From the NCBI RefSeq assembly GCF_965641715.1, contig NZ_OZ282455.1: a stretch of 64,000 bases of DNA; one strand, written 5' to 3'. Positions 32,037-48,835 of the stretch are shown in pieces; position 1 is the stretch's first letter; each line of letters opens with the position of its first letter. The position numbers and the translations under genes are program-made. Under the pieces are notes generated by a model. That model searched no databases. It was not told the origin of the DNA and worked only from the letters and a program-made list of their open reading frames with translations. Source of the stretch: Escherichia coli (lineage in GTDB: Bacteria > Pseudomonadota > Gammaproteobacteria > Enterobacterales > Enterobacteriaceae).

Positions 32037-32390
32037 TATTCTAATAACTGAATCCACACACAGTCAAATGTCATTATTGTGACTAAAAAACGCTCAATTC
32101 TCTGAGCGTGTGGCTGTATGCCTGCTGTGGACTGCTGTGTCCAGCTTATCCACAGCATTTTGCGCACGGTTCTGTGGACAAAATACCTGGTTACCCAGGC
32201 CGTGCCGGCACGTTAACCGGGCTGCATCCGATGCAAGTGTGTCGCTGTCGCCGGCCTCCTCACCCGGTCACGTTTCGTCGTTCCTCCTCCACGCGCTGCG
32301 GCTTCGGGGCCGCACCTGCATTCGTATGCGGTCGCCCGGTTACAGGTGCGGCACGGCCTGATGGAGGCCGCATGTGAGAGGAGAATTCCC

Positions 32391-33317
32391 ATGCCAAACT
32401 GGTGCTCGAATCGTATGTATTTTTCTGGTGAACCGGCACAGATCGCTGAGATTAAACGACTGGCCAGCGGCGCAGTCACACCGTTTTATCGCCGCGCCAC
32501 AAATGAAGGTATTCAGCTGTTTCTGGCCGGAAGTGCCGGACTTCTGCAGACCACTGAAGATGTGCAGTTTGAACCGTGCCCCGGACTGACGGCTGCCGGA
32601 CGTGGTGTTGTATCGCCGGAGAATATCGCGTTCACACGCTGGCTGACACACCTGCAGAACGGTGTGCTACTGGATGAACAAAACTGCCTGATGCTGCATG
32701 AACTCTGGCTGCAGAGCGGTACTGGACAGCGTCGCTGGGAAGGATTACCGGACGATGTCAGGGATACCATCACCGCACTTTTCACCGCAAAAAGAGGTGA
32801 CTGGTGTGGCTTCTGGAGTAACGAGGATGTATCGGTGTGGTGGAACCGTCTTTGTGACAACGTACTGCCGGAAAAAACCATGCCGTTTGACCTGCTGACG
32901 GTTCTGCCCACCCGCCTGGATGTTGAAGTGAATGGCTTTAACGGTGGTGTTCTGAACGGTGTTCCTTCTGCATATCACTGGTATACGGAACAGTATGGCG
33001 TGAAGTGGCCTGTGGGGTATGAGGTGAATATCAGCAGTCAGGGAGACAACTTCATTCAGGTTGATTTCGACACGCCGTGGTGTCAGCCGGAAAGCGACGT
33101 TATTGCAGAATTAAGCCGCCGTTTCAGCTGCACGCTGGAGCACTGGTATGCCGAACAGGGCTGTGATTTCTGTGGCTGGCAGTTGTATGAGCGCGGAGAG
33201 CTCGTTGATGTGCTGTGGGGGGAACTGGAATGGTCTTCCCCGACAGATGACGATGAGCTGCCGGAAGTCACCGGACCTGCGTGGATAGTCGACAATGTGG
33301 CGCATTATGGCGGATGA
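32391..33317 (+). CDS. conserved plasmid hypothetical protein
   Basis: 308 aa from MPNWCSNRMYFSGE... with RBS GAGGAG upstream; Cys/Trp-rich. Confidence 0.45.
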   Translation: MPNWCSNRMYFSGEPAQIAEIKRLASGAVTPFYRRATNEGIQLFLAGSAGLLQTTEDVQFEPCPGLTAAGRGVVSPENIAFTRWLTHLQNGVLLDEQNCLMLHELWLQSGTGQRRWEGLPDDVRDTITALFTAKRGDWCGFWSNEDVSVWWNRLCDNVLPEKTMPFDLLTVLPTRLDVEVNGFNGGVLNGVPSAYHWYTEQYGVKWPVGYEVNISSQGDNFIQVDFDTPWCQPESDVIAELSRRFSCTLEHWYAEQGCDFCGWQLYERGELVDVLWGELEWSSPTDDDELPEVTGPAWIVDNVAHYGG

Positions 33318-33700
33318 AGTATGACGGAGACGGGCGGGAAACCGCCCGTTTCTTTTCCGACAAAGGATGTCGCCGTGCTCCTCTTTTTACTGCGCCGGCT
33401 GACGCGGCGCGGCATAAACGCTGCCTGTGGTCAGTGTCCCGCGTCCGGCGGGCACGGGACGGGCGCTTTTACCGCTCCCGGCTGGCGTCGGTGACAGTGT
33501 ACGCCAGCCCGTCGCCCTTTTCTGATGAACGCCCTTCAAGCCGCTTTCGCGGCATAACCTCGCCGTCAAAAAGACGACGGCTGCGGTATTCCACGGTCGG
33601 CCTGACCCGTTACCGGACGCGGTGAACAGCCCACAGGCAGCGGGGAACGGGCGCCACAGGGGTGCCCTCCCGGTGCCCTCTGTAAGAGAAGGAGTTTTGT

Positions 33701-35874: not shown

Positions 35875-35930
35875 TGACACTGGCGGGGAAAATCCCCGCC
35901 TTTTTCCTGCCGGTCCCCGGACAGAGCACA

Positions 35931-36280
35931 AAGGAAGTCGCCGCCGGCTCCGCTTTACCCGGCCATGCAGAGCATGGCCTTGTGGTTTTCAGTTATGTGG
36001 CCTCAGCGTCGTGTGCGGGCTGTGCCGTGCCTCCATCTTAGCCGGGCTGGCGTTGATGCAAGGGTACGCTTCGCCGCTGCGGTCACCCGGTCCCTCCTTC
36101 CCGTCTGCCGTGATTTTCCGGTCGTTCACCCGCTCAGATTTCGCGGTCTCACCCTCCAACTCCCGCCAGCCGTGTGCGTCAGGCTGCGGCTTCCCTTGCG
36201 CCCCTGCATCCCCGCCTTATCGCCCGGCTTTTCTGGAGGCACGGCACCGCCCGGTGTCGCGGAATATGTGAACAACGGAG
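35931..36280. repeat. leading-region dispersed repeat, family A copy 1 (ssDNA-promoter/Frpo-like candidate)
   Basis: ~350 bp nearly identical to 42876-43225; GC-rich with internal hairpins; immediately upstream of klcA. Confidence 0.6.
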
Positions 36281-36289
36281 GAAAACATC

Positions 36290-36715
36290 ATGCAATATGC
36301 GAAACCTGTCACTCTGAACGTTGAAGAGTGCGACCGTTTGTCTTTTCTGCCTTACCTGTTTGGCCAGGATTTTCTGTATGCCGAAGCGTCTGTATACGCG
36401 CTGGCGAAACAAATGATGCCGGAATATGAAGGCGGATTCTGGCACTTCATCCGCCTGCCGGACGGTGGCGGTTACATGATGCCGGACGGTGACCGTTTCC
36501 ACATGGTGAACGGTGCAAACTGGTTTGACCGTACCGTGAGTGCTGATGCCGCAGGCATCATCCTTACCTCCCTTGTGATTAACCGCCAGTTGTGGCTGTA
36601 CCACGACAGCGGGGATGCAGGACTGACCCAGCTTTACCGGATGCGCGATGCGCAGTTGTGGCGTCACATCGAATTTCACCCTGAATGCAACGCGATTTAC
36701 GCAGCACTGGACTGA
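36290..36715 (+). CDS. klcA: antirestriction protein KlcA/ArdB family
   Basis: 141 aa [25 protein letters not shown]... ; size and position typical of KlcA/ArdB. Confidence 0.6.
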
Positions 36716-36761
36716 TTAACGGACGGGGCGGCAATGCCGCCCCTGTAAAGGAGACGAGAAC

Positions 36762-37184
36762 ATGTACTGTACTGTTAAAGAAATTATCCGTGATGTACTG
36801 GATACAGACGTGCCGGACAGTGAATGCGTTTTTGCCGTGGTGCTGACCCGTGGGGATGTGCGTCACATAGCCCAGGACTGGAGTCTGACAGACGATGAGC
36901 TGGAAACCGTCATGCAGCGGCTGGACGATGCCTTTGAATATGGTGCGGATGTCAGCGTTGTTCACGGCGTTGTTCGTGAACTGATGGAAGAAAAGCGCGC
37001 CAGCCGTCAGGTGACAGTCCCGGCGGTGATGCTGGAAAAAGTGATGGCGCTGGCAGGCAGTGAAATGAAGCGCCTGTATGCCGTCGGGAGTGAGAACGGG
37101 GGCGACGGTGACGCATTCGTCAGGGAGGAACGCGAAGCAATGGACGTTGTGTTACAGGCGCTGGACGGGGAGACGATGTCATGA
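36762..37184 (+). CDS. DUF1380-like leading-region protein (paralog of 34619-35053)
   Basis: 140 aa; shared motif with 34619-35053. Confidence 0.45.
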   Translation: MYCTVKEIIRDVLDTDVPDSECVFAVVLTRGDVRHIAQDWSLTDDELETVMQRLDDAFEYGADVSVVHGVVRELMEEKRASRQVTVPAVMLEKVMALAGSEMKRLYAVGSENGGDGDAFVREEREAMDVVLQALDGETMS

Positions 37185-37372
37185 ATATCAGCACAGAAAC
37201 CCGCGAAATTCTGCGCAATTACAAAGCCGTGATTAATGCGCGGCGTCGTGAAATGGGGCAGAAACCGCTCACCACTGCGCAGATTGTTGATGAAATCTGC
37301 GATTTTGTGGCGAATCAGCAGGCGGTTTTCCTCGGTGGTCACTATATCCTTCAGGGCAGCAGAAACAGGTGA
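37181..37372 (+). CDS. hypothetical small protein
   Basis: 63 aa; ATG overlaps upstream stop (ATGA). Confidence 0.35.
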   Translation: MNISTETREILRNYKAVINARRREMGQKPLTTAQIVDEICDFVANQQAVFLGGHYILQGSRNR

Positions 37373-37574
37373 TACAGGGCAGGCGGTAGAGGCCGCCTGT
37401 CAGCCCGCGCGAAAACCCCTGGCAGGCTGACGCCTGCCGGAAATGCGGGGTGCAGCGCCTGCGGCGCTGCCGGCCCGGCTTTCCGGTCAGAAGGTAGTGT
37501 ATGGCTGTATGCAGGGAACAGGTGTGATATTCCGTGACACTGTCACTGTTTCTGGCTGTCTTTTATTGCGCCCA

Positions 37575-38075
37575 CTTCGGCTCCCGGCTGCCTGGCGGCA
37601 TCCGGTCGTCAGGCCCGACTCCGACAGGCAGCTGCTGGCGCACCCGCCAGTCTCCGCCGAACCCGCTGGCGCGGTTTCGGGCTGCCGCTACGGTCCGATG
37701 CGTGAAAACCCGGCTTGCAGCGACCGTTCCGGTCGCGCCGCCCCTGTCGCGCCGTGACCTGCGCTCCCTGCACACCTGACGGTGTGTGAGGAAACTGCGC
37801 CTGATGGCGCAGCAGTCTTCCCTCCTGCCGCCACCCCTGCGGCCTGTTTCCCGCTGTGGACTTTCCGGGGGGCAGACGTAACCCCCTCCCGTTCCATCTG
37901 TCCAGGGTGAGATGCACCGGCCACAAAATTTTTAGCCATGAACCCGGCTAAAAATTTTGCGTCCGCCCCCGGACAGCTGTCCCGTGAGGCGGTAAACGGG
38001 CCCCCATCGGAAAGGTCCACTGCGGGGAGAAACCCCTGTGAAGTGGACGGCAGGAGGAGCTTTCGCTCCTCTGAA
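37575..38075. repeat. leading-region dispersed repeat, family B copy 1 (ssDNA-promoter/Frpo-like candidate)
   Basis: ~500 bp highly similar to 43919-44415 and partly to 46950-47295; immediately upstream of ssb. Confidence 0.6.
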
Positions 38076-38140
38076 GGGGCACATGAACGTCCCGTCGCCG
38101 GTATCCGGTTTATCTCACATCTTTCAGTCAGGAGGTTCTT

Positions 38141-38668
38141 ATGAGTGCACGTGGTATCAACAAGGTCATCCTCGTCGGGCGTCTGGGCAATGATCCGGAA
38201 GTCCGTTACATCCCCAACGGGGGCGCAGTGGCAAACCTGCAGGTGGCCACATCAGAAAGCTGGCGTGACAAACAGACGGGGGAGATGCGGGAGCAGACGG
38301 AATGGCACCGCGTGGTGCTGTTCGGCAAGCTCGCGGAAGTGGCAGGTGAATATCTGTGCAAGGGTGCGCAGGTCTACATCGAAGGTCAGCTTCGCACCCG
38401 TAGCTGGGAAGATAACGGTATCACCCGTTACGTCACTGAAATTCTTGTTAAGACCACGGGCACCATGCAGATGCTGGGGAGTGCACCACAGCAGAACGCT
38501 CAGGCGCAACCGAAGCCTCAGCAGAATGGGCAGCCACAGAGTGCTGACGCGACGAAAAAAGGTGGCGCGAAAACGAAAGGCCGTGGACGTAAGGCCGCGC
38601 AGCCCGAGCCTCAGCCGCAACCGCCGGAGGGGGAGGATTACGGGTTTTCAGACGATATCCCGTTCTGA
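38141..38668 (+). CDS. ssb: plasmid single-stranded DNA-binding protein
   Basis: [33 protein letters not shown]... OB-fold N-terminus; acidic tail ...DDIPF. Confidence 0.95.
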
Positions 38669-38686
38669 CTGGCCTGACTGTGATAA

Positions 38687-38959
<273 letters not shown>

Positions 38960-39011
38960 GAGAGGTGCCGGACGCGCGAACGTCCGGCAGGACATAAGCA
39001 ATTATAAGGGG

Positions 39012-40976
39012 ATGATTATGCCTGTAACGAAGTGTGAACCAGAAACCACCCGCAAAGCAAGCCGTAAATCTGCAAAAACGCAGGAAACAGTCCTGTCTGC
39101 CCTGCTGGCGCAGACGGAGGAAGTGAGCGTGCCGCTGGCCTCACTGATTAAGTCACCGCTGAATGTGCGCACGGTGCCGTATTCTGCGGAGTCCGTCAGC
39201 GAACTGGCAGGGTCCATTCAGGGCGTCGGACTGCTGCAGAATCTGGTCGTGCATACCCTGCCTGGTGAGCGCTACGGTGTCGCCGCAGGTGGTCGCAGAC
39301 TGGCAGCACTCAATATGCTGGCTGAGCGTGGAATCATTCCGGCTGACTGGCCTGTCCGCGTGAAAATTATTCCGCAGGAACTGGCGACGGCTGCATCGAT
39401 GACCGAGAACGGTCATCGCCGGGATATGCACCCTGCCGAACAGATTGCCGGATTCCGCGCAATGGCGCAGGAAGGCAAAACAGCGGCACAAATCGGTGAT
39501 TTGCTGGGCTATTCACCCCGCCACGTTCAGCGAATGCTGAAACTGGCAGACCTTGCGCCTGTCATCCTTGATGCGCTGGCAGAAGACCGCATCACCACAG
39601 AGCACTGTCAGGCGCTGGCGCTGGAGAACGACACCGCGCGTCAGGTGCAGGTGTTTGAAGCTGCCTGTCAGTCGGGATGGGGCGGAAAACCGGAAGTACA
39701 GACCATTCGTCGTCTGGTGACCGAAAGTGAAGTGGCGGTGGCGGGGAACACTAAATTCCGCTTCGTGGGGGCTGATGCCTTCTCGCCAGATGAACTGCGC
39801 ACTGATTTGTTCAGCGACGATGAGGGTGGCTATGTGGACTGTGTTGCGCTCGATGCCGCCCTGCTGGAAAAACTCCAGGCTGTTGCAGAGTACCTTCGGG
39901 AAGCTGAGGGCTGGGGATGGTGTGCCGGACGCATGGAGGCCGTTGGTGAGTGCCGTGAAGATGCCCAGGCATACCGCAACCTGCCGCAGCCGGAAGCAGT
40001 GCTGACGGAGGCGGAAGAAGAACGCCTGAACGAACTGATGGCACGTTACGACGCACTGGAAAACCAGTGTGAGGAATCTGACCTGCTGGAAGCAGAAATG
40101 AAGCTGATGCGCTGCATGGCGAAGGTCAGAGCGTGGACGCCGGAGATGCGTGCCGGAAGCGGTGTGGTGGTGTCCTGGCGTTATGGCAACGTGTGTGTCC
40201 AGCGTGGTGTGCAGTTGCGCAGCGAGGATGACGTGGCTGACGACGCTGACCGCACGGAACAGATGCAGGAGAAAGCGTCAGTGGAGGAAATCAGTCTGCC
40301 ACTGCTGACGAAAATGTCTTCCGAACGCACGCTGGCAGTCCAGGCGGCACTCATGCAGCAACCGGACAAATCTCTGGCACTGCTGGCATGGACGCTCTGC
40401 CTGAATGTGTTTGGCAGCGGGGCGTACAGTAGTCCCGCCAGAATTTACCTGGAATGTGGGCATTACTCACTGACCAGCGCTGCGCCGTCAGGGAAGGAAG
40501 GTACCGCATTCATGGCGCTGATGGCAGAGCACTTTCGCCTTGCTGCCCTGCTGCCGGATGAATGGGAACGGGACATGACGACGTTCCTGTCACTCAGCCA
40601 GGAGGTGCTGTTATCCCTGCTCAGTTTCTGCACTGCATGCAGCATCCACGGCGTTCAGACCCGTGAGTGTGGTCACACGTCACGCAGTCCGCTGGACTCG
40701 CTGGAAACCGCCATCGGCTTTCACATGCGCGACTGGTGGCAGCCGACAAAAGCAAACTTCTTCGGACACCTGAAAAAGCCGCAGATTATCGCAGCCCTGA
40801 ATGAGGCAGGACTGTCCGGTGCCGCACGGGACGCGGAGAAGATGAAGAAAGGTGATGCGGCTGAACATGCAGAGCACCATATGAAAGACAACCGCTGGGT
40901 TCCAGGCTGGATGTGTGCACCACATCCACAGACAGATGCCACTGAACGCACCGATAACCTGGCTGATGCCGCCTGA
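39012..40976 (+). CDS. ParB-like nuclease domain protein (leading region)
   Basis: ~654 aa; N-terminal ParB/Srx-like region ...LIKSPLNVRTV...GLLQNLVVHTLPGERYGVAAGGRRLAALNM... Confidence 0.7.
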   Translation: MIMPVTKCEPETTRKASRKSAKTQETVLSALLAQTEEVSVPLASLIKSPLNVRTVPYSAESVSELAGSIQGVGLLQNLVVHTLPGERYGVAAGGRRLAALNMLAERGIIPADWPVRVKIIPQELATAASMTENGHRRDMHPAEQIAGFRAMAQEGKTAAQIGDLLGYSPRHVQRMLKLADLAPVILDALAEDRITTEHCQALALENDTARQVQVFEAACQSGWGGKPEVQTIRRLVTESEVAVAGNTKFRFVGADAFSPDELRTDLFSDDEGGYVDCVALDAALLEKLQAVAEYLREAEGWGWCAGRMEAVGECREDAQAYRNLPQPEAVLTEAEEERLNELMARYDALENQCEESDLLEAEMKLMRCMAKVRAWTPEMRAGSGVVVSWRYGNVCVQRGVQLRSEDDVADDADRTEQMQEKASVEEISLPLLTKMSSERTLAVQAALMQQPDKSLALLAWTLCLNVFGSGAYSSPARIYLECGHYSLTSAAPSGKEGTAFMALMAEHFRLAALLPDEWERDMTTFLSLSQEVLLSLLSFCTACSIHGVQTRECGHTSRSPLDSLETAIGFHMRDWWQPTKANFFGHLKKPQIIAALNEAGLSGAARDAEKMKKGDAAEHAEHHMKDNRWVPGWMCAPHPQTDATERTDNLADAA

Positions 40977-41027
40977 TGAACAACCACACCGCCCCGCCGG
41001 AGACGGGGCGGCAGCAAGGGAGATACC

Positions 41028-41465
41028 GTGATGAAAACTGAACTGACCCTGAATGCCCTGCAGTCCATGAACGCACAGGAATATGAAGATATCCGTGCTG
41101 CGGGAAGCGATATGCGCCGTAATCTCACTCACGAGGTGATGCGTGAAGTGGACGCACCGGCTAACTGGATGATGAATGGCGAGTATGGCAGTGAGTTCGG
41201 GGGCTTTTTCCCCGTCCAGGTTCGTTTCACGCCAGCCCACGAACGTTTCCACCTGGCATTATGTTCGCCGGGAGACGTCTCTCAGCTCTGGATGCTGGTT
41301 CTGGTGAATTGTGGTGGACAGCCTTTCGCCGTCGTTCAGGTGCAACATATCTTCACGCCTGTCGCTATCAGTCACACGCTGGCGCTTGCCGCGACACTTG
41401 ATGCGCAGGGGTACAGTGTTAACGACATCATCCATATCCTGATGGCAGAAGGAGGTCAGGCATGA
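41028..41465 (+). CDS. psiB: plasmid SOS inhibition protein PsiB
   Basis: (M)[27 protein letters not shown]... matches PsiB. Confidence 0.9.
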
Positions 41466-42181
41466 GCGCACGTTCACGGGCACTGATCCCCCTCAGCGCA
41501 GAGCAACAGGCCGCCATGCAGGCTGTGGCTGTCACCGAACAACGTCGTCGTCAGGGACGCACACTTTCAGCATGGCCTTATGCCAGCGCTTTCTTTCGCT
41601 GCCTGAATGGCAGTCGCCGGATTTCGCTGACCGATCTCCGCTTTTTTGCTCCTGCGCTGACGAAGGAGGAATTTCATGGCAACCGTCTCCTGTGGCTGGC
41701 TGCCGTGGATAAACTGATTGAAAGTTTTGGTGAAGTCTGTGTTCTTCCCCTGCCATCCGATGCGGGGCATCGTCTGTTCCCGTCCGTTCCTTTTCGTGAA
41801 GGTGAGCGGCGTCGTCAGAAAACCACGCTGACAGAGCAGAAATACAGCCGCCAGCGGGAACGTGAGGCAGAACGACGGGAACTGGAATACCAGACATGTT
41901 TTGCTCAGGCGCAGATTGACCTTGCGTTTCATACTCCCGCCACGGTCGGAAGCTGGTTGTCCCGCTGGTCTGGTGTTGTTGAGGAGCATGATCTGGAAAC
42001 GATTTTCTGGGGGTGGTGCGGGCGTTTTCCATCACTGTCATCATTTGACCGGTTTTTCTGGCAGGAGGAACCACTCTGGCGGCTGATTTTTGAAGCCGGT
42101 GAGGCCGGTCGTGGTGCACCGGTACAGGTACGTGCACTTGAGCAGTGGATGATCCCGAACAAGCTGGAGAACGCAATATGA
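41462..42181 (+). CDS. psiA: plasmid SOS inhibition protein PsiA
   Basis: 239 aa, overlaps psiB stop; [22 protein letters not shown]... Confidence 0.85.
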
Positions 42182-42774
42182 TGAAATCAGACGAACAATA
42201 TCACGTTCCCGTGTGGATGCGACCTCTGTTGCCGTTGCTCTGCAATACCGGTGGTAATGATCCGGAGGAACTGCTGAATGATACAGAAACCACCGCCAGT
42301 GCGAATATTGTCCGTTATGTACTGATAGTTGCAGTGCGGTCGCAGATTGATCTGCTGCAGCTACTGTACAGGAAAGGACTGTTGCGCACAGAGATACCAG
42401 GTGGCTTTTCACCGGAAGAAGCGCAGGAACTCCTGGATAATCTGGTGCGCAGCCATATCAGCAAGGCGCTGTCGGGTGAGCGAATGGCAGCCCGTGACAG
42501 AAATGCCGATCTGACCTGGATTCGCCAGCAACTGGTCGATGCCGCCTGGTTTGTCCGTGCCACACTGGAAGCGCATGGGATGGGCGTCGGAAATGAGAGT
42601 CCCTCTGCTCCGCCGGAGACAATGCCGGACATACAGACACGGGAACTGGTTATGTTGATCAAGCGACTGGCATCATCGCTGAAAGCGGTGAAACCCGACA
42701 GTAGCGTGGTGCGTGAAGCGCAGGACTGGCTGTGCGACAGAAAACTTGTGGATATCACAGATATTCTCCGGTGA
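42178..42774 (+). CDS. hypothetical protein
   Basis: ORF from [13 protein letters not shown]..., start overlaps psiA stop. Confidence 0.4.
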   Translation: MMKSDEQYHVPVWMRPLLPLLCNTGGNDPEELLNDTETTASANIVRYVLIVAVRSQIDLLQLLYRKGLLRTEIPGGFSPEEAQELLDNLVRSHISKALSGERMAARDRNADLTWIRQQLVDAAWFVRATLEAHGMGVGNESPSAPPETMPDIQTRELVMLIKRLASSLKAVKPDSSVVREAQDWLCDRKLVDITDILR

Positions 42775-42875
42775 ACCAGACATGTATATTTTACGCAGGG
42801 ACACGCCGATCATGATCGTTTCATATCAGGGGTGGTCTGGAGGTCATGCGGCGTGTCCTCTGCACTCGCCGGAAT

Positions 42876-43225
42876 AAGGAAGTCGCCGGCGGCTCCGCTT
42901 TTACCCGGCCATGCGGGGCATGGCCTTGTGGGTTTTCAGCTCTGTGGCCTCAGCGTCGTGTGCGGGCTGTGCCGTGCCTCCATCTTAGCCGGGCTGGCAG
43001 GGATGCAAGGGTACGCTTCGCCGCTGCGGTCACCCGGTCCCTCCTTCCCGTCTGCCGTGATTTTCCGGTCGTTCACCCGCTCAGATTTCGCGGTCTCACC
43101 CTCCAACTCCCGCCAGCCGTGTGCGTCAGGCTGCGGCTTCCCTTGCGCCCTGTGCATCCCCGCCTTATCGCCCGGCTTTTATGGAGGCACGGCACCGCCC
43201 GGTGCCGCAGAACATGTGACTATGG
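42876..43225. repeat. leading-region dispersed repeat, family A copy 2
   Basis: Near-identical to 35931-36280; immediately upstream of ardA. Confidence 0.6.
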
Positions 43226-43236
43226 AGGATTCGGGA

Positions 43237-43737
43237 ATGTCTGTTGTTGCACCTGCTGTATACGTTGGAACCTGGCACAAATACAACTGTGGAAGTATCG
43301 CCGGACGCTGGTTTGACCTGACCACGTTTGATGATGAGCGCGACTTTTTCGCCGCCTGCCGTGCTCTTCACCAGGATGAAGCCGATCCTGAACTGATGTT
43401 TCAGGATTATGAGGGATTCCCGGGGAATATGGCCTCTGAATGCCATATCAACTGGGCCTGGGTTGAAGGCTTCCGCCGGGCACGGGATGAAGGCTGCGAA
43501 GAGGCTTATCGTCTCTGGGTGGATGATACCGGTGAGACGGATTTTGACACCTTCCGCGATGCCTGGTGGGGCGAGGCTGACAGTGAGTAGGCTTTTGCGG
43601 TTGAGTTCGTCAGTGATACCGGCCTGCTGGCTGACGTGCCGGAGACGGTGGCGCTCTATTTTGACTATGAGGCGTATGCGCGGGATTTATTCCTGGACTC
43701 CTTCACCTTTATTGACGGTCATGTGTTCCGTCGGTGA
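43237..43737 (+). pseudogene. ardA: antirestriction protein ArdA interrupted by in-frame amber codon (TAG at 43588-43590)
   Basis: N-terminal 117 codons [28 protein letters not shown]... ; after TAG the same frame continues 48 codons AFAVEFVSDTGLLADVPETVALYFDYEAYARDLFLDSFTFIDGHVFRR to TGA at 43735-43737 (total 166 codons = ArdA length). Confidence 0.75.
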
Positions 43738-43918
43738 TTTACTCCCCCGCTCCGGCGGGGGTATGGCCTGCCAGGCCGCCGGAAAACCCTGGCAGGCTTA
43801 CGCCTGCCTGAAATGCAGGAGGGCCGCGCCTGCGGCGCTGCCCTTCCTGCCCGTCATGGTGTGAGGCATTTTTCTGTTATGTCGTTTCTGTTGTTCTGAT
43901 TTCCGGAGGCGGGGACAC

Positions 43919-44415
43919 CTTCGGCTCCCGGCTGCCTGGCGGCATCCGGTCGTCAGGCCCGACTCCGACAGGCAGCTGCTGGCGCACCCGCCAGTCTCCG
44001 CCGAACCCGCTGGCGCGGTTTCGGGCTGCCGCTACGGTCCGATGTCTGAAAAACCAGGCTTGCAGCGACCGTTCCGGTCGCGCCGCCCCTGTCGCGCCGG
44101 AAACGGCGCTCCCTGCACACCTGACGGTGTGTAAGGCCACTGCGCCTGATGGCGCAGTCAACCCTTCCGCCGCCACCCCTGCGGCCTGTTTCCCGCTGTG
44201 GACTTTCCGGGGGCTGGAGTAACCACATCCCGTTTCAGCAGTCTAGGGGAAGATATACCGTCCACAAAATTTTTAGCCATAAACCCGGCAAAAAATTTTG
44301 CGTCCGCCCCCGGACAGCTGCCCCGTGACGTGGTGACGGACGCCCCATCGGAAAGGTCCACTGCGGGGAGAAACCCCGAAGAAGTGGACGGCAGAAGGGG
44401 CTTTCGCCCCTCCGG
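43919..44415. repeat. leading-region dispersed repeat, family B copy 2
   Basis: Highly similar to 37575-38075; upstream of ORF 44466. Confidence 0.6.
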
Positions 44416-44465
44416 GGAGCAACCGGTCGGCCCGGCGACCTGATTCAGCAGAAGGAGACGTTTTC

Positions 44466-44900
44466 ATGACAGTCAGCAGCACGATTTCCGTTTTTTGCCG
44501 CGACGGGGTGTTCCGTACCGTTTACTGCCACCTGCACGGGGAGCCGACCTGGAACGGTCGCATCCTGCATACCCACTATGCCACCGGTCAGCAGGCCGAA
44601 GCCCTGGTTGAACACGGTGATATCCGTTGCCTCGGTCCCCGTTGCGACAAACCCGCCGGGCATACGCTTCAGAACCCGGTGGACGGTGTGACGGCTTATT
44701 ACGGACGTGACAGTGGTTTCCGGATGGACAGTGAGGCGCGTGAGTACCGTTCTTTCAGGGAGGCTATTGCCACTGAAAGCACTGAAGAGGTGCGCTTCCA
44801 TTATGTGTTCATCGACGGCTACTGGAAGGTGATGTACCGCACGCCGGAAGGCTGGAAGATGAAAGCGCTCGCGCTGGCACTGCGTCGCTGTCCGAAATGA
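44466..44900 (+). CDS. hypothetical protein
   Basis: 144-aa ORF with RBS GAAGGAGA upstream. Confidence 0.4.
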   Translation: MTVSSTISVFCRDGVFRTVYCHLHGEPTWNGRILHTHYATGQQAEALVEHGDIRCLGPRCDKPAGHTLQNPVDGVTAYYGRDSGFRMDSEAREYRSFREAIATESTEEVRFHYVFIDGYWKVMYRTPEGWKMKALALALRRCPK

Positions 44901-44993
44901 AAAAAAGGCAGGGCGATAAACCCTGCCTCTCTCCGCCGGCGCTTCCCCGCCAGGAAGTCCGGCATCTCAATCACTATCTATGGAGATTATGCC

Positions 44994-45260
44994 ATGAGAC
45001 CATCAATTATCTTCGCAACCGCCGAGTATGTAAAGCGTCTGCGTGAAGAGTGCCTGCGGGAGAATAAACCCCTGCACCGCCATACCCGCTTCAGACGTCA
45101 GGAGCTGGCACAGGATGAGATTAACCCGGACGTCCTGGCGATGAGCGGCCATATCGCCAGACGCTGCAGTGAGCAGAAGCGGGTGCGTATCCCCGCTATG
45201 AAAGTCAGCGAATGGGGCCACCTGCTCCGCGCGCTTGAAATTGAGCGGGTCTGCCACTGA
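44994..45260 (+). CDS. hypothetical protein
   Basis: 88-aa ORF. Confidence 0.35.
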   Translation: MRPSIIFATAEYVKRLREECLRENKPLHRHTRFRRQELAQDEINPDVLAMSGHIARRCSEQKRVRIPAMKVSEWGHLLRALEIERVCH

Positions 45261-45324
45261 TTAACCCTTGCCGTCTGCCTGTGCAGGCGGCAGGATACGT
45301 TCAGACATCTCACCAGGAGGAACC

Positions 45325-46251
45325 GTGAGTAAGAAGAAAACCACCACGACGCCCACGCCGCATGATGCCGCGTTCCGGTCGTTCCTGGCGAATCCCGACG
45401 TCGCCAGAGATTTTCTGGAACTGCATCTTCCGGCGGAGTACCGGCAGTTGTGCGACCTGTCCACGCTGAAGCTGGAACCCGCCACCTTTGTTGAGCCGGA
45501 CCTGCATCAGTACGCCAGCGATATCCTCTGGAGTGTGAAAACCACCGGGGGTGAAGATGGCTATGTTTATACGCTCATCGAGCACCAGAGCACCGAAAAT
45601 CTGTACATGCCTTTCCGCATGTTACGTTACAGTGTGGCGGCGATGCAGAGACATCTGGAGCAGCACAAAACGTTGCCACTGGTCATTCCGGTGCTGTTCT
45701 ATCACGGTGAGCGCAGCCCGTACCCGTACAGCATGAACTGGCTGGACTGTTTTGAGAATCCGGCGCTTGCGGCTAAAATATACACAAAGCCGTTTCCGCT
45801 GGTTGATATCACTGTCGTTGATGACAATGAAATCATGAACCATCGCCGGATGGCCGCACTGACGCTGCTGATGAAGCATATCCGCCATCGTGACATGATG
45901 GAGCTGCTGGACAAACTCCCGCAGGTCATGGTGGAAATTTCAGACGAGCAGGTGCGTGTTCTGATTCATTACATCGTTAACGCAGGGGACTCTGTATCAC
46001 CGGAATTTATGCGGGCGCTGGCTGAGCGTCTGCCGCAGCATGAGGATAAACTGATGACTATCGCAGAACGTCTTGAGCAAAAAGGTCGCCAGGAAGGCAG
46101 GATGGAAGGACGCATGGAAGGACGCATGGAAGGAGCGCTTGAAAAAGCCCTGGCTATTGCGTGCCAGCTTCAGAAAATGGGGATGACGCCGGAGCAGATT
46201 AAGCAGGCTACCGGACTTTCCGATGACGAACTGAAGAAAATCACTCACTGA
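45325..46251 (+). CDS. Rpn (YhgA-like) family recombination-promoting nuclease / putative transposase
   Basis: GTG start after AGGAGG; ...FRSFLANPDVARDFLELHLP...YTLIEHQS... PDDEXK-type Rpn core; C-terminal tandem RMEG repeats. Confidence 0.7.
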   Translation: MSKKKTTTTPTPHDAAFRSFLANPDVARDFLELHLPAEYRQLCDLSTLKLEPATFVEPDLHQYASDILWSVKTTGGEDGYVYTLIEHQSTENLYMPFRMLRYSVAAMQRHLEQHKTLPLVIPVLFYHGERSPYPYSMNWLDCFENPALAAKIYTKPFPLVDITVVDDNEIMNHRRMAALTLLMKHIRHRDMMELLDKLPQVMVEISDEQVRVLIHYIVNAGDSVSPEFMRALAERLPQHEDKLMTIAERLEQKGRQEGRMEGRMEGRMEGALEKALAIACQLQKMGMTPEQIKQATGLSDDELKKITH

Positions 46252-46312
46252 GTAAACATCACAGCCCGGCAAAATGCCGGGCTTTTTTGTCAGCAGGAGC
46301 AGAGCAAACAGC

Positions 46313-46471
46313 ATGACGATTGCAGAACGTCTTATTCAAAAAGGCGCACTTGAAGTGGCGCGGGAAATAGCCTGCCGGCTGCGGGATATGGGCTGGACGC
46401 CGGAACGGATTCAGGAGGCAACCGGACTTTCCGGTGAAGAACTGAAAAAGCTGTTTCCTGATGAGCAGTAG
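46313..46471 (+). CDS. small protein homologous to Rpn C-terminal tail only
   Basis: MTIAERLIQKGALEVAREIACRLRDMGWTPERIQEATGLSGEELKKL mirrors Rpn tail MTIAERLEQKG...LAIACQLQKMGMTPEQIKQATGLSDDELKKI. Confidence 0.45.
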   Translation: MTIAERLIQKGALEVAREIACRLRDMGWTPERIQEATGLSGEELKKLFPDEQ

Positions 46472-46501
46472 CCTGGCATTCAGCCAGGCTGTGAATCACG
46501 C

Positions 46502-46753
46502 TCACACATCCTCTGCCGTTTCCCCCAGTTCATTTTCCAGTCGCCTGATGATATCTGCCTTACGCATCCCCTGCATGTGAGGCAGCAGGTCACGGACTGA
46601 AAGTGCCTGGGTGGTCCTCCAGACGGTGACGTCCACCTGTTCCGCATTTTCCCAGGCGTGCCATGTTCTCTGCGTCACGCCAAATTCTCTGGCCGCTTTT
46701 TCGCGTGACCAGAGCATGCTTTTTCGCCAGATTCGCAGTTCCCAGCCGGTCAT
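46502..46753 (-). CDS. putative HTH DNA-binding protein
   Basis: 83-aa ORF; ...SREKAAREFGVTQRTWHAWE... HTH-like. Confidence 0.4.
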   Translation of the reverse strand: MTGWELRIWRKSMLWSREKAAREFGVTQRTWHAWENAEQVDVTVWRTTQALSVRDLLPHMQGMRKADIIRRLENELGETAEDV

Positions 46754-46949
46754 AAAACACCTTTAAAAAAGTGAAAAAACTTCACTTTATTTTATCATCA
46801 TAATCACCAAATTAACGCGATAAATAAGTGTGAAAAAGTGAAGAAATTTCACTTTTTTTGCTTGTAAATGTCGTGCGGTTTTCTCTGTTTTCACCTGTGC
46901 GGGAGTGGTGTGCCAGTGACCACCACATGCCATTGTTGTGCCGTCGTTT

Positions 46950-47295
46950 TTCTTCAGTCGCGCCGTATGCGGCGCTCCCTGCACACCTTACGGTGTGTAA
47001 GGCCACTGCGCCTGATGGCGCAGCTGTCTCTGCCTGTCTGCCGCCGCACTGCGGCCTGTTCTCCGCAGACGGACTTTCCGGGGGTACATACATGACCACA
47101 TCCCGTTTCAGTCGTCCAGGGGAGAGATGTACCAGCCACAAAACTTTTTGCCGCAGGCGTCAAAAACTTTTGCGTCTGCCCCCGGACAACTGCCCCGTGA
47201 CGTGGTGAGCGTCCCCCGTCGGAAAGGTCCACTGCGGGGAAATCCCCGAAGACCCGGACGGCAGAAGGAGCTTCGCTCCTCCGGGAAATGACCTG
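46950..47295. repeat. leading-region dispersed repeat, family B copy 3 (shorter)
   Basis: Shares ~350 bp core with copies at 37575 and 43919; upstream of ORF 47330. Confidence 0.55.
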
Positions 47296-47329
47296 GCTGA
47301 CCCGGCAGTCGTGACGATGAGGAGACAAT

Positions 47330-48181
47330 GTGATGAATCAGACTTTACCCACTGCTGACCTGAATACTGCCGGCACGACAGATGTTATTCCGTCTGTGGC
47401 TATCGACCGCATCATCGCGCAGCGTAACGAAGGTATTGCACTGTTCATGCAGGCGATGGAATGCCTGGCGACAGCGCGCAAGATTCTGCTCGATGCGTCA
47501 GGTGATATTTTTCTTTACGGGTTTGAAGACTGCGTGACTGATTCCGTTCGTCGCATAGATAAACCGGAAGAAGCGAAAAGGAATATCACCCGTCTTGCCG
47601 ACCGGAAAATCTGGGATCGCCTGATGACAGATACGGGCATGTACACCTTCATGAGTTCATGCCAGCGTGATGAGTGGAACAGCCAGCTGATGAGCGACAC
47701 CTGTCCTGAAATCACCCTGGACAATGTACTGGCAACATTCCGCCATCTGAATGCCTGCAAGATGCAGACATTTGAACAGGGACTGATTGATGTCTACCGG
47801 AAATTGTCATGGGATTACAGAACCAATAATCCCTGCCGTCTGGGTAAGAAAATCATTATTGAAAACCTGCTGTACCGCTGGAGTAACGGGCGTGTGACGC
47901 TGGACTGCAGCGGACGGGAGGCACTGGATGACCTGGTACGTCCGTTTTATCTGCTGGAGGGGCGCAACGTTCCTGACTTCAGGAACAGTATCGGGGCGCA
48001 GTATGGTGAATTTCTCGGGAACGGCGACAATGTCGGTAAGCTGTTAGAAGGGGAATATTTTACGGTGCGTGGCTACCAGAAAGGGACCGTACACATTGTC
48101 TTTAAGCGTTCTGACCTTGTTGAAAAACTGAATGATATTATTGCACGGCATTATCCAGGTGCATTGCCGCCACGAGTCTGA
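47330..48181 (+). CDS. hypothetical leading-region protein (first ORF inward of oriT)
   Basis: 283-aa ORF preceded by RBS GAGGAG. Confidence 0.4.
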   Translation: MMNQTLPTADLNTAGTTDVIPSVAIDRIIAQRNEGIALFMQAMECLATARKILLDASGDIFLYGFEDCVTDSVRRIDKPEEAKRNITRLADRKIWDRLMTDTGMYTFMSSCQRDEWNSQLMSDTCPEITLDNVLATFRHLNACKMQTFEQGLIDVYRKLSWDYRTNNPCRLGKKIIIENLLYRWSNGRVTLDCSGREALDDLVRPFYLLEGRNVPDFRNSIGAQYGEFLGNGDNVGKLLEGEYFTVRGYQKGTVHIVFKRSDLVEKLNDIIARHYPGALPPRV

Positions 48182-48639: not shown

Positions 48640-48835
48640 TATCATCAAAAACTGACTCCTGGCAGGGCTGCGCCCTGCCTCTGCCGTCTGCATAAGACTA
48701 TGATGCACAAAAATAACAGGCTATAATGGCCTGAAAAACGGGACAGGATGTGCAATTGTAATACCGTCACACGCGACGCTATTACAATTGCCATCTGGTC
48801 AGGGCTTCGCCCCGACACCCCGTAAGGAGCCTGAA
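48640..48835. other. origin of transfer (IncI1-type oriT) region
   Basis: Immediately upstream of nikA; inverted repeats GGCAGGGC-TG-CGCCCTGCC (48661-48679) and perfect 12-bp IR GCAATTGTAATA(48752-48763)/TATTACAATTGC(48780-48791). Confidence 0.7.

Follow-up and report, generated by a model that had tools for sequence, protein, structure and literature searches.

Hairpin promoters active in single-stranded DNA (ssDNA) are known from IncI and IncF plasmids. Those of class 1, also labelled 'ssp1', are reportedly the subject of work by Masai and Arai in 1997 and by Bates et al. in 1999. Class 1 includes Frpo1 and Frpo2 of F (Couturier et al., 2023). Transcription from ssDNA only, with zygotic induction of the downstream genes, has been reported for the class 1 elements of F and of pESBL/ColIb, and primer RNA synthesis is described in the literature for class 1 (Frpo). 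The klcA and ardA promoters of pESBL were set apart from the class 1 elements ssi1-3 and Frpo as 'class 2'; they are induced in transconjugants, as seen by RNA-seq, and their starts were mapped by 5'RACE (Wen et al., NAR 2025; PMC12672017). A 2026 preprint presents F ssp2 as both a promoter and a roadblock, which stalls complementary-strand synthesis and is resolved by UvrD. Class 3 is the M.EcoGIX promoter of pESBL, or ssp3 of F, a hairpin 5' of the M.EcoGIX-type methylase that does not resemble the other classes.

The feature analysed here is already known, as these published hairpin ssDNA promoters of IncI/IncF plasmids. Our own small additions are the TTGnnn-15-TAnnnT motif of Family A with its -10 box in a bubble, an additional element (C), and the gene context of the superfamily to which Family A belongs.

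Two repeat families in the leading region

The window, a stretch of 64,000 nt of Escherichia coli DNA, is the leading region of an IncI-gamma/K plasmid, with 31 SNPs per 25 kb relative to pRKI3099a. Its minus strand carries the motif CATCCTG|T, which we take to be the R64/RP4-type nick consensus, and the minus strand is thus the T-strand, in agreement with the earlier note on this DNA. The order of entry, defined by the nick region, is from 48.7 kb toward lower coordinates; of the ssDNA promoters, B3 (ssi1) goes into the recipient first. The leading-region genes are all annotated on the plus strand and point toward oriT.

Two families of long direct repeats are found in front of these genes, essentially where the earlier note had placed them. 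Over 355 nt, A1 (35931-36280) and A2 (42876-43225) show 94.6% identity, which rises to 98% in a 220-nt core; for B1 (37575-38080) and B2 (43919-44420) the identity is 90.4% over 499 nt. B3 (46955-47300) has only its gene-proximal ~330 nt in common with the other B copies, at 80-81.5% identity. That the copies are co-oriented with the genes, GC-rich and hairpin-forming was also correctly seen: all five follow the direction of the genes, their GC content is 0.61-0.70, and an SD and a start codon come after each (klcA-like gene at 36290, ssb at 38141, ardA at 43237, ORF 44466, and the DUF4942 gene at 47330/47333). Two statements stand in part. The copies were said to end just before a ribosome-binding site, which is so for Family A, whose homology comes to within ~10 nt of the SD, but that of Family B stops ~40-60 nt short. 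The long extents given for Family B are real as repeats, but the functional element of its copies is the 3' ~330 nt only; the extra ~170 nt of B1 and B2 lies outside it and is a cluster of short GC-rich stem-loops (fold z about -3).

How do the copies compare with described elements? With the ssi1-3 reference sequences of PMC11541004 (Supplementary Table 2), the B copies are 99.1-99.4% identical to ColIb-P9 ssi1-ssi3 on the minus strand (Table 1). The regions upstream of klcA and ardA in pESBL-EA11 are 97-98% identical to A1/A2, and a region upstream of the F antirestriction gene (L124, 10392-10751) is 96.1% identical to A1 and 94.6% to A2. Between A and B there are only chance words of 9-14 nt (E>4); on this sequence comparison they are two unrelated classes. 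The Frpo/ssi-type identity proposed in the earlier note is therefore upheld, and so is its view that two distinct sequence families share one role, which was published in December 2025. The elements are kept at 90% identity or above in more than 5000 plasmids.

Table 1. Coordinates of the elements, boxes, genes and nick region in the window
Feature	Position	Strand	Details
Element C, Family A homologue (165 nt) upstream of DUF1281 gene	32196..32360	-	-35-like TTGCAT 32236-32231; -10-like TAACGT 32215-32210
Further terminator, just outside A1 repeat	35882-35900		terminator scan
A1 upstream edge	35931..36020	+	terminator-like hairpin 35961-35979, kept in A2 (terminator scan, A1/A2 alignment)
A1, class 2 hairpin upstream of klcA/ardB-like gene	36021..36248	-	pESBL 97-98%, F 96%, covariation
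A1 boxes	36061-36056; 36040-36035	-	-35-like TTGCAT; -10-like TAAGAT
klcA/ardB-type antirestriction gene behind A1	36290..36715	+	Pfam Antirestrict PF03230, E=3e-26
Extension common to B1/B2 (~170 nt)	37575..37743; second copy 43919-44088	.	outside published ssi coordinates; absent from B3
B1 = ColIb-P9 ssi3, class 1/Frpo-type, upstream of ssb	37744..38074	-	99.4% over 331 nt to AJ238399 ssi3
ssb, first gene of ssb-parB-psiB-psiA operon behind ssi3	38141..38668	+	NCBIfam NF010292, 384 bits
A2, class 2 hairpin upstream of ardA	42968..43196	-	-35-like 43008-43003; -10-like TAAGAT 42987-42982
ardA behind A2	43237..43737	+	Pfam ArdA PF07275 on intact pRKI3099a copy
B2 = ColIb-P9 ssi2, upstream of ORF 44466	44089..44414	-	99.4% over 326 nt
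B3 = ColIb-P9 ssi1, upstream of DUF4942 gene	46955..47283	-	99.1% over 329 nt
oriT nick region CATCCTG|T	48741..48748	-	minus-strand read; NikA-type repeat and 17-bp inverted repeat upstream; nikA/nikB adjacent

Hairpins and promoter-like boxes

Folding of the transferred strand, a check that the earlier note had proposed, gives long imperfect hairpins in both families, and these are supported by covariation. The copies overall range from -62 to -104 kcal/mol. All five window copies of A and B fold more stably on the T-strand than on its complement, and so do 25/25, 15/15 and 10/10 alignment sequences or relatives, the last being the class 1 relatives. B1 folds at -103.7 kcal/mol (z=-11.3; complement -88.1), B2 at -98.6 (complement -90.1), B3 at -100.8 (complement -82.2) and A2 at -66.7 (complement -55.7); for A1 the z value over the whole 359-nt repeat is a modest -3.2. 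The A1 and A2 hairpins are 228-229 nt long, and their bases lie 40-41 nt before the start codons. In the class 1 alignment 92.0% of cells are paired and 17 of 42 pairs show double changes. The corresponding values are 97.9% and 15/46 for the long Family A-like set and 96.2% and 19/47 for the short one, against 32-47% paired in control alignments that were slid.

The 3' arm of A1 and A2 carries TTGCAT-15-TAAGAT, with positions 2-5 of the -10 box unpaired in A1 and positions 2-4 unpaired in the consensus fold. This -10 box is on the T-strand arm. The duplex coding strand lacks it; there the plus strand reads TTTTCT (the A1 mirror) or TTTTAT. Exact TTGnnn-15-TAnnnT motifs occur on the minus strand only, at A1, A2 and C; a search that included mirrors with one mismatch returned six matches, with 0.06 expected. 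TAnnnT follows TTGnnn by 15 nt in 20 of 21 complete relatives, which were found by HMM and not by the pattern. The 15-nt spacer is below the canonical 16-18 nt and the -35 matches at 3/6 positions; the arm asymmetry is our own reading, and so is the probable assignment of the Family A boxes, which may differ from the published one. Box matches are weak in class 1 (TTGTGG-16/17-T[A/G]GACN); the 3' arm there has a bulge of 11-13 nt, and in B2 this arm carries TTGTGG-16-TAGACT. The promoter-like -35/-10 sequences that the earlier note proposed to look for in the stems are present in Family A, with weak matches only in Family B.

Four of the five genes lack a conventional sigma-70 match on the plus strand directly in front of them. 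On the same strand, a weak promoter-like match is found at 46771-46798, upstream of B3, so the DUF4942 gene might also be transcribed from the duplex form. Rfam covariance models, applied to 30-52 kb, gave two sub-threshold chance matches, neither inside the repeats.

Element C and its relatives

A third Family-A-like element, C, had gone unmentioned in the earlier note. It is 99% identical to its pESBL counterpart and 97% to that of F, and it is homologous to class 2. An HMM built from 14 relatives, with the window sequences left out, matched A1, A2 and C at E=1e-12 to 1e-14. The class 3 candidates in the window (M.EcoGIX-type methylase hairpin) are element C and a methylase-proximal hairpin at 33353-33700; both are conserved in F, and the second is without detectable boxes and without strand asymmetry. 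Among relatives in other Enterobacterales, the genes that follow hairpins of this superfamily are of three types only (methylase, ArdA and KlcA), and the hairpin base lies 26-41 nt before the SD and start codon.

Is element C a seventh ssDNA promoter that has not been described, or is the published class 3 a short member of class 2? Either way there would be one superfamily, which we propose tentatively and at slightly worse than even odds. If this is correct, a class-2-type superfamily exists with members of two lengths, 165-177 nt and 225-237 nt, and with the signature TTGnnn-15-TAnnGT on the non-template-like arm and the -10 in a conserved mismatch bubble that the duplex coding strand lacks. 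The ssDNA-methylase, ArdA and KlcA genes of Enterobacterales plasmids would have this superfamily as their main driver. As a corollary, IncI/K plasmids would possess two ssp2-type barriers, A1 and A2, and their leading region would be parted into single-stranded domains that are protected in succession.

Proposed function and comparison with described systems

By analogy with the described elements, the five repeats are very probably ssDNA promoters of two unrelated classes on the T-strand of the IncI-gamma/K leading region (probability about 0.9). From the present analysis come sequence identity to characterised elements, the strand, the hairpins, covariation, arm asymmetry and gene context; ssDNA transcription, zygotic induction, 5'RACE starts, class 1 priming and class 2 stalling come from the literature on sequences that are 96-99% identical. 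From the nick at ~48.74 kb, the T-strand would pass into the recipient with its 5' end leading, and each element would fold into an imperfect hairpin of ~230 nt. The stem might then mimic duplex promoter DNA, with the 3' arm as the non-template strand and the 5' arm running on into the template of the downstream gene. Initiation by host sigma-70 RNA polymerase would take place inside the stem, and transcription would proceed toward oriT, from ssi1 into the DUF4942 gene, from ssi2 into ORF 44466 and the genes after it, from A2 into ardA, from ssi3 into ssb-parB-psiB-psiA and from A1 into klcA. With the exact boxes as assigned here, transcription would probably begin at ~36240 and ~43188. The ardA gene of the window is truncated by a stop codon at 43588-43590 (E118*), as the translation and the SNP comparison indicate, so A2 would drive a defective gene here. 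As complementary-strand synthesis irons the hairpins out, the promoters would be turned off. Specificity for the single strand could arise in Family A from the -10 box that the duplex coding strand lacks, and in Family B from the 11-13-nt spacer bulge that exists only on the T-strand 3' arm. With such promoters, IncI/IncF plasmids would begin to express anti-restriction and SOS-inhibition genes upon entry into a new cell.

Could the elements serve mainly in replication, class 1 as initiation sites for primer RNA and class 2 as a barrier that delays the complementary strand? According to reviews and the 2026 preprint, DNA synthesis is primed by Frpo transcripts in vitro, and probably also in vivo. 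Conversion stalls at F ssp2, to which A1 is 96% identical, until UvrD resolves the hairpin (2026 preprint), and the great stability of the hairpins fits such a role. A replication function is compatible with a promoter function. As the principal role it is unlikely, though worth serious attention; the same papers show that downstream expression depends on the elements, and neither a barrier nor a primer site has need of the conserved 26-41-nt spacing to the SD and start codon or of -35/-10-like boxes.

The repeats might instead act at the RNA level, as plus-strand 5' leaders, attenuators or terminators behind conventional promoters. Terminator-like hairpins do lie at the edge of Family A (Table 1), the sense RNA of any inverted repeat folds, and the B1/B2 extension is a small stem-loop cluster. 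Such a role is nonetheless very improbable, as the minus-strand fold is consistently the more stable, conserved G.T wobbles become C.A mismatches in sense RNA, the -10-like box is on the minus-strand arm only, there is no Rfam match, and most copies have no plus-strand promoter upstream. Slightly less credible still is the idea of functionless scars of duplication or recombination, junctions left by shuffling of leading-region modules. The repeats flank gene modules, the DNA common to B1 and B2 extends past the ssi element, and Couturier et al. call such repeats recombination substrates; but compensatory changes keep the pairing across genera, the identity across several thousand plasmids is high, strand asymmetry and box conservation indicate selection, and function has been demonstrated for near-identical copies.

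Among more distant systems, the sso of rolling-circle plasmids and the ssi of other plasmids appear analogous, in that they too are folded ssDNA hairpins that recruit host RNA polymerase, according to a review; they act on a transferred or displaced strand, but in priming only, uncoupled from downstream protein-coding genes. The candidates of Samuel et al. (2024, Nature), from an insect-gut metagenome element, are computational and were labelled Frpo-like. Frpo' 4 matches A1/A2 at 82% identity over ~340 nt, and Frpo* 1 and Frpo* 3 have the core motif in common with A and C. By sequence these candidates fall in the lineage of Family A (class 2) and not of Frpo/ssi, since A and B have no similarity. 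As in pESBL (class 2) and F (ssp2), Family A stands in front of the same genes, and the leading region is colinear; there are two copies in this plasmid and in pESBL versus one in F, and the ardA behind the second copy is truncated here. Family B also has the ~230-nt T-strand hairpin, AT-rich apical stem and 3'-arm bulge of class 1. The alignments that the earlier note had suggested give just 74-78% identity to F Frpo (ssiD), over a core of ~60-115 nt, versus 99% to ColIb-P9 ssi1-ssi3. From the latter, with which order relative to oriT and downstream genes also agree, Family B shows no material difference.

Repeat families and their gene setting

The repeats lie where the earlier note had placed them. 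Repeat finding and pairwise alignment show that the two copies of Family A (A1, before the klcA-like gene, and A2, before ardA) align over 355 nt at 94.6% identity, rising to 98% in a 220-nt core, and the Family B copies before ssb and ORF 44466 (B1, B2) share 90.4% identity over 499 nt. A third B copy, B3, is present, but what it has in common with the others is the gene-proximal ~330 nt only (80-81.5%). The view that A and B are distinct sequence families is borne out, as pairwise alignment between them yields only 9-14-nt words (E>4) and thus no detectable similarity. All copies have the orientation of the genes, with a Shine-Dalgarno sequence and start codon behind each.

The E. coli plasmid pRKI3099a (IncI-gamma/K1, MOBP, MPF_I) covers 100% of the 13-kb region, as do thousands of other IncI/IncF plasmids. 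Between pRKI3099a and the window, 31 positions differ in 25 kb. Family searches agree on the genes: SSB and the methylase by NCBIfam, KlcA/ArdB by Pfam PF03230 and ArdA by Pfam PF07275; KlcA, ArdA, DUF4942 and DUF1281 have no NCBIfam models, and Pfam was used in their place. By comparison with pRKI3099a, near-identical elsewhere, the ardA of the window has a premature stop at 43588 (GAG to TAG, E118*), which cuts ArdA to 117 of 166 aa in the window plasmid. An Rfam scan of 30-52 kb matched nothing relevant.

Features of the leading region, in order of coordinates
Feature	Coordinates	Strand	Remarks
Start of gene order		plus, except dinI-like (minus)	dinI-like, DUF1281 gene, hypothetical ORF, DNA methylase
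Element C	32196-32360	minus	165-nt Family A homologue, 5' of DUF1281 gene
Hypothetical ORF	33314-33625	plus	overlapped by methylase-proximal hairpin
Perfect Rho-independent-type terminator	33331-33352		after DUF1281 gene, before methylase-proximal hairpin
Methylase-proximal hairpin	33353-33700		~230-nt long-range hairpin, ends at methylase RBS
A1	35931-36280		behind it: klcA-like gene (plus)
ORF overlapping a hairpin	35965-36324
Shared B1/B2 flanks	37373-37743; 43750-44088
Short hairpins further upstream, B1/B2	37410-37449; 43780-43819		outside published ssi elements
B1	37575-38080		behind it: ssb, DUF905, parB, psiB, psiA (plus)
Extra ~170 nt common to B1/B2	37575-37743; 43919-44088		outside published ssi2/ssi3 elements
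Stretch on B1 side	37701-37772		~92% conserved beside both Frpo copies of F
Stretch inside parB-like gene	39300-39674		strong, strand-symmetric folding signal (-77.5 / -76.9 kcal/mol)
A2	42876-43225		behind it: ardA (plus)
B2	43919-44420		behind it: ORF 44466, then Rpn-family gene (plus)
Direct repeat	46130-46238 / 46341-46449		75% identical, 3' of Rpn-family gene
Bidirectional terminator-like hairpin	46263-46283		between the copies of the direct repeat
Weak sigma-70-like match	46771-46798	plus	GTGAAA-16-TATCAT, in AT-rich stretch 5' of B3
B3	46955-47300		behind it: DUF4942 gene (plus); next mobC-like (minus), oriT, nikA, nikB
Nick-region sequence	~48741-48748	minus	CATCCTG|T, after NikA-type repeats

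Hairpins and candidate promoter boxes on the transferred strand

Which strand enters the recipient? The minus-strand sequence CATCCTG|T is taken here to be an R64/RP4-type nick region; from its position and what is established for MOBP relaxases, the minus strand is the transferred one (T-strand). DNA would then enter from 48.7 kb toward lower coordinates, with the T-strand as the template of the leading genes.

Hairpin potential had been claimed for the repeats, and on the T-strand each copy does fold into one long imperfect hairpin, of ~230 nt in Family B and 228-229 nt in Family A. As an inverted repeat folds on both strands, strand asymmetry was tested. Each of the five window copies folds more stably on the T-strand than on the complementary strand, the difference being 8.5-19 kcal/mol, and so do the relatives (25/25 long Family-A-like, 15/15 short and 10/10 of class 1, the Frpo type). 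Covariation points to the same structures: 97.9% of cells are paired in the long Family-A-like set, 96.2% in the short and 92.0% in class 1, with compensatory double changes in 15 of 46, 19 of 47 and 17 of 42 pairs, respectively, compared with 32-47% and 1-10 pairs in controls where partners were slid by 1-3 columns. Conserved G.T wobbles occur in all three sets; the complement would have C.A mismatches in their place. The extra DNA common to B1 and B2 gives small stem-loops only, of weak significance.

The 3' arm of Family A carries TTGCAT-15 nt-TAAGAT, with the -10-like hexamer unpaired at positions 2-4 or 2-5. The motif GCCCGGYTANNNTNNNNKCACGGC has three exact matches, all of them minus-strand (A1, A2 and one other site); with one-mismatch mirrors included there are six matches against 0.06 expected. 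The plus-strand mirrors differ precisely at the hexamer (TTTTCT, TTTTAT, TACAGG), so that the duplex coding strand is without a -10 box. This offers a simple rationale, partly inference and our own reading, by which Family A may be active specifically as a single strand. Since the genome scan pattern had itself forced TA...T, the scan set was left out as -10 evidence and the box test was repeated on 23 extra copies found by HMM alone: TAnnnT stands 15 nt after TTGnnn in 20 of the 21 complete copies, and one of the HMM-found relatives has a perfect TTGACA. The 15-nt spacer is atypical, and the template arm measures ~19 nt across the same interval, which implies a distorted helix. Transcription is predicted to start at ~36240 and ~43188, with leaders of ~50 nt. 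One relative, L085:2351-2584, is a near-perfect palindrome with TACAGT on both arms; it alone among the members would have a -10-like box on either strand.

In Family B, an 11-13-nt bulge on the 3' arm only separates an AT-rich apical stem (with TTGTGG) from a T[A/G]GACN hexamer. TTGTGG and T[A/G]GACN are candidate boxes for this class, an assignment that is likewise ours. No conventional plus-strand sigma-70 promoter was matched before four of the five genes; from the weak match 5' of B3, the DUF4942 gene could be transcribed to some extent in duplex form.

Element C and the wider hairpin family

An unbiased 300-nt hairpin scan of 29-49.5 kb recovered the five A and B elements and two more, element C and the methylase-proximal hairpin. 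Element C has TTGCAT-15-TAACGT on its 3' arm and is 99% identical in pESBL and 97% in F. An HMM built from 14 relatives, with window sequences left out, finds A1 at E=3.5e-14, A2 at 2e-12 and C at 4.5e-12. The methylase-proximal hairpin displays no strand asymmetry in fold comparison and no recognisable -35/-10 boxes in a box search. The annotated hypothetical ORF that it overlaps matches neither Pfam nor NCBIfam models, and may be no real gene. The ORFs overlapping hairpins were considered as a source of Pfam DUF families that some annotations carry, DUF1472 and YubH among them, and rejected, as those frames have no Pfam match.

Which of the two hairpins is class 3, the M.EcoGIX promoter class of Wen et al.? 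It must be one of them. Both are conserved in F, which does not discriminate; a literature search found no text placing the M.EcoGIX promoter, Fomenkov 2020 being without coordinates. Either element C is what was published as class 3, or it is a seventh element that has gone unreported.

A motif scan of one genome per species gave 120 stretches, roughly half of them chance matches in unrelated phyla, which were removed by requiring the partner arm and a CTTG box. About 43 distinct real relatives stand in Enterobacterales (Pantoea, Enterobacter, Kosakonia, Yersinia, Rahnella, Salmonella arizonae and others), in two length classes of 165-177 and 225-237 nt, with hairpin bases 26-41 nt 5' of a Shine-Dalgarno sequence and start codon. 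Only three gene families are found behind them: M.EcoGIX-type methylase (15), ArdA (13) and KlcA/ArdB (8). Enterobacterial leading-region hairpins of high identity also appear on contigs assigned to Gram-positives (L013/L014, Streptomyces morookaense; L018, an Oscillibacter MAG; L024, L038 and L076, Oscillospiraceae/Collinsella MAGs); these are most likely E. coli-type plasmids present as contaminants or by mis-binning.

Significance and comparison with published promoters

In a newly invaded cell, hairpin promoters of this kind set the timing of the earliest plasmid gene expression (anti-restriction, SOS inhibition, SSB) and are therefore central to the establishment of resistance plasmids. 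The value here is confirmatory: both classes were recognised from sequence alone, one of them published only in late 2025. The additions are modest: a sequence-level rationale for class 2 single-strand specificity (class 2 being Family A), a third Family A homologue among the window's hairpins, and evidence that the hairpins belong to a broader superfamily linked with three families of anti-restriction genes. Arm asymmetry, third homologue and superfamily are small annotatable increments; they could aid annotation of the Family A hairpin, which occurs at 90% identity or more in over 5000 plasmid records and nearly always lacks annotation there.

The ssi references come from Samuel et al. 2024 (PMC11541004, Supplementary Table 2). 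Against them, identity is 99.1% for B3 with ColIb-P9 ssi1, 99.4% for B2 with ssi2 and 99.4% for B1 with ssi3, in each case full length on the minus strand; over the core, similarity to F ssiD (Frpo) reaches 74-78%. Judged by these alignments, Family B are the dispersed Frpo homologues of ColIb-P9, at present named class 1 or ssp1. The leading region of pESBL-EA11 is colinear with the window, and A1 and A2 are 97-98% identical to its klcA- and ardA-upstream regions. In pESBL (IncI1), six leading-region operons are induced up to ~500-fold within 15 min of mating, and 5'RACE gave one transcription start per induced operon (Wen et al., NAR 2025, PMC12672017). F has a single Family A copy (96% identity) 5' of its antirestriction gene; a January 2026 preprint names it ssp2 and shows that it drives yfgB and also, as a hairpin roadblock, holds up synthesis of the complementary strand until UvrD resolves it. 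The candidate 'Frpo' 4' of Samuel et al. (PMC11541004), listed before Wen et al., is 82% identical to Family A. As A and B both match published classes, the reading of two single-strand promoter families was right and is already in print; by analogy with these near-identical sequences, for which the mechanism is established, the feature in the window is to be regarded as already known.
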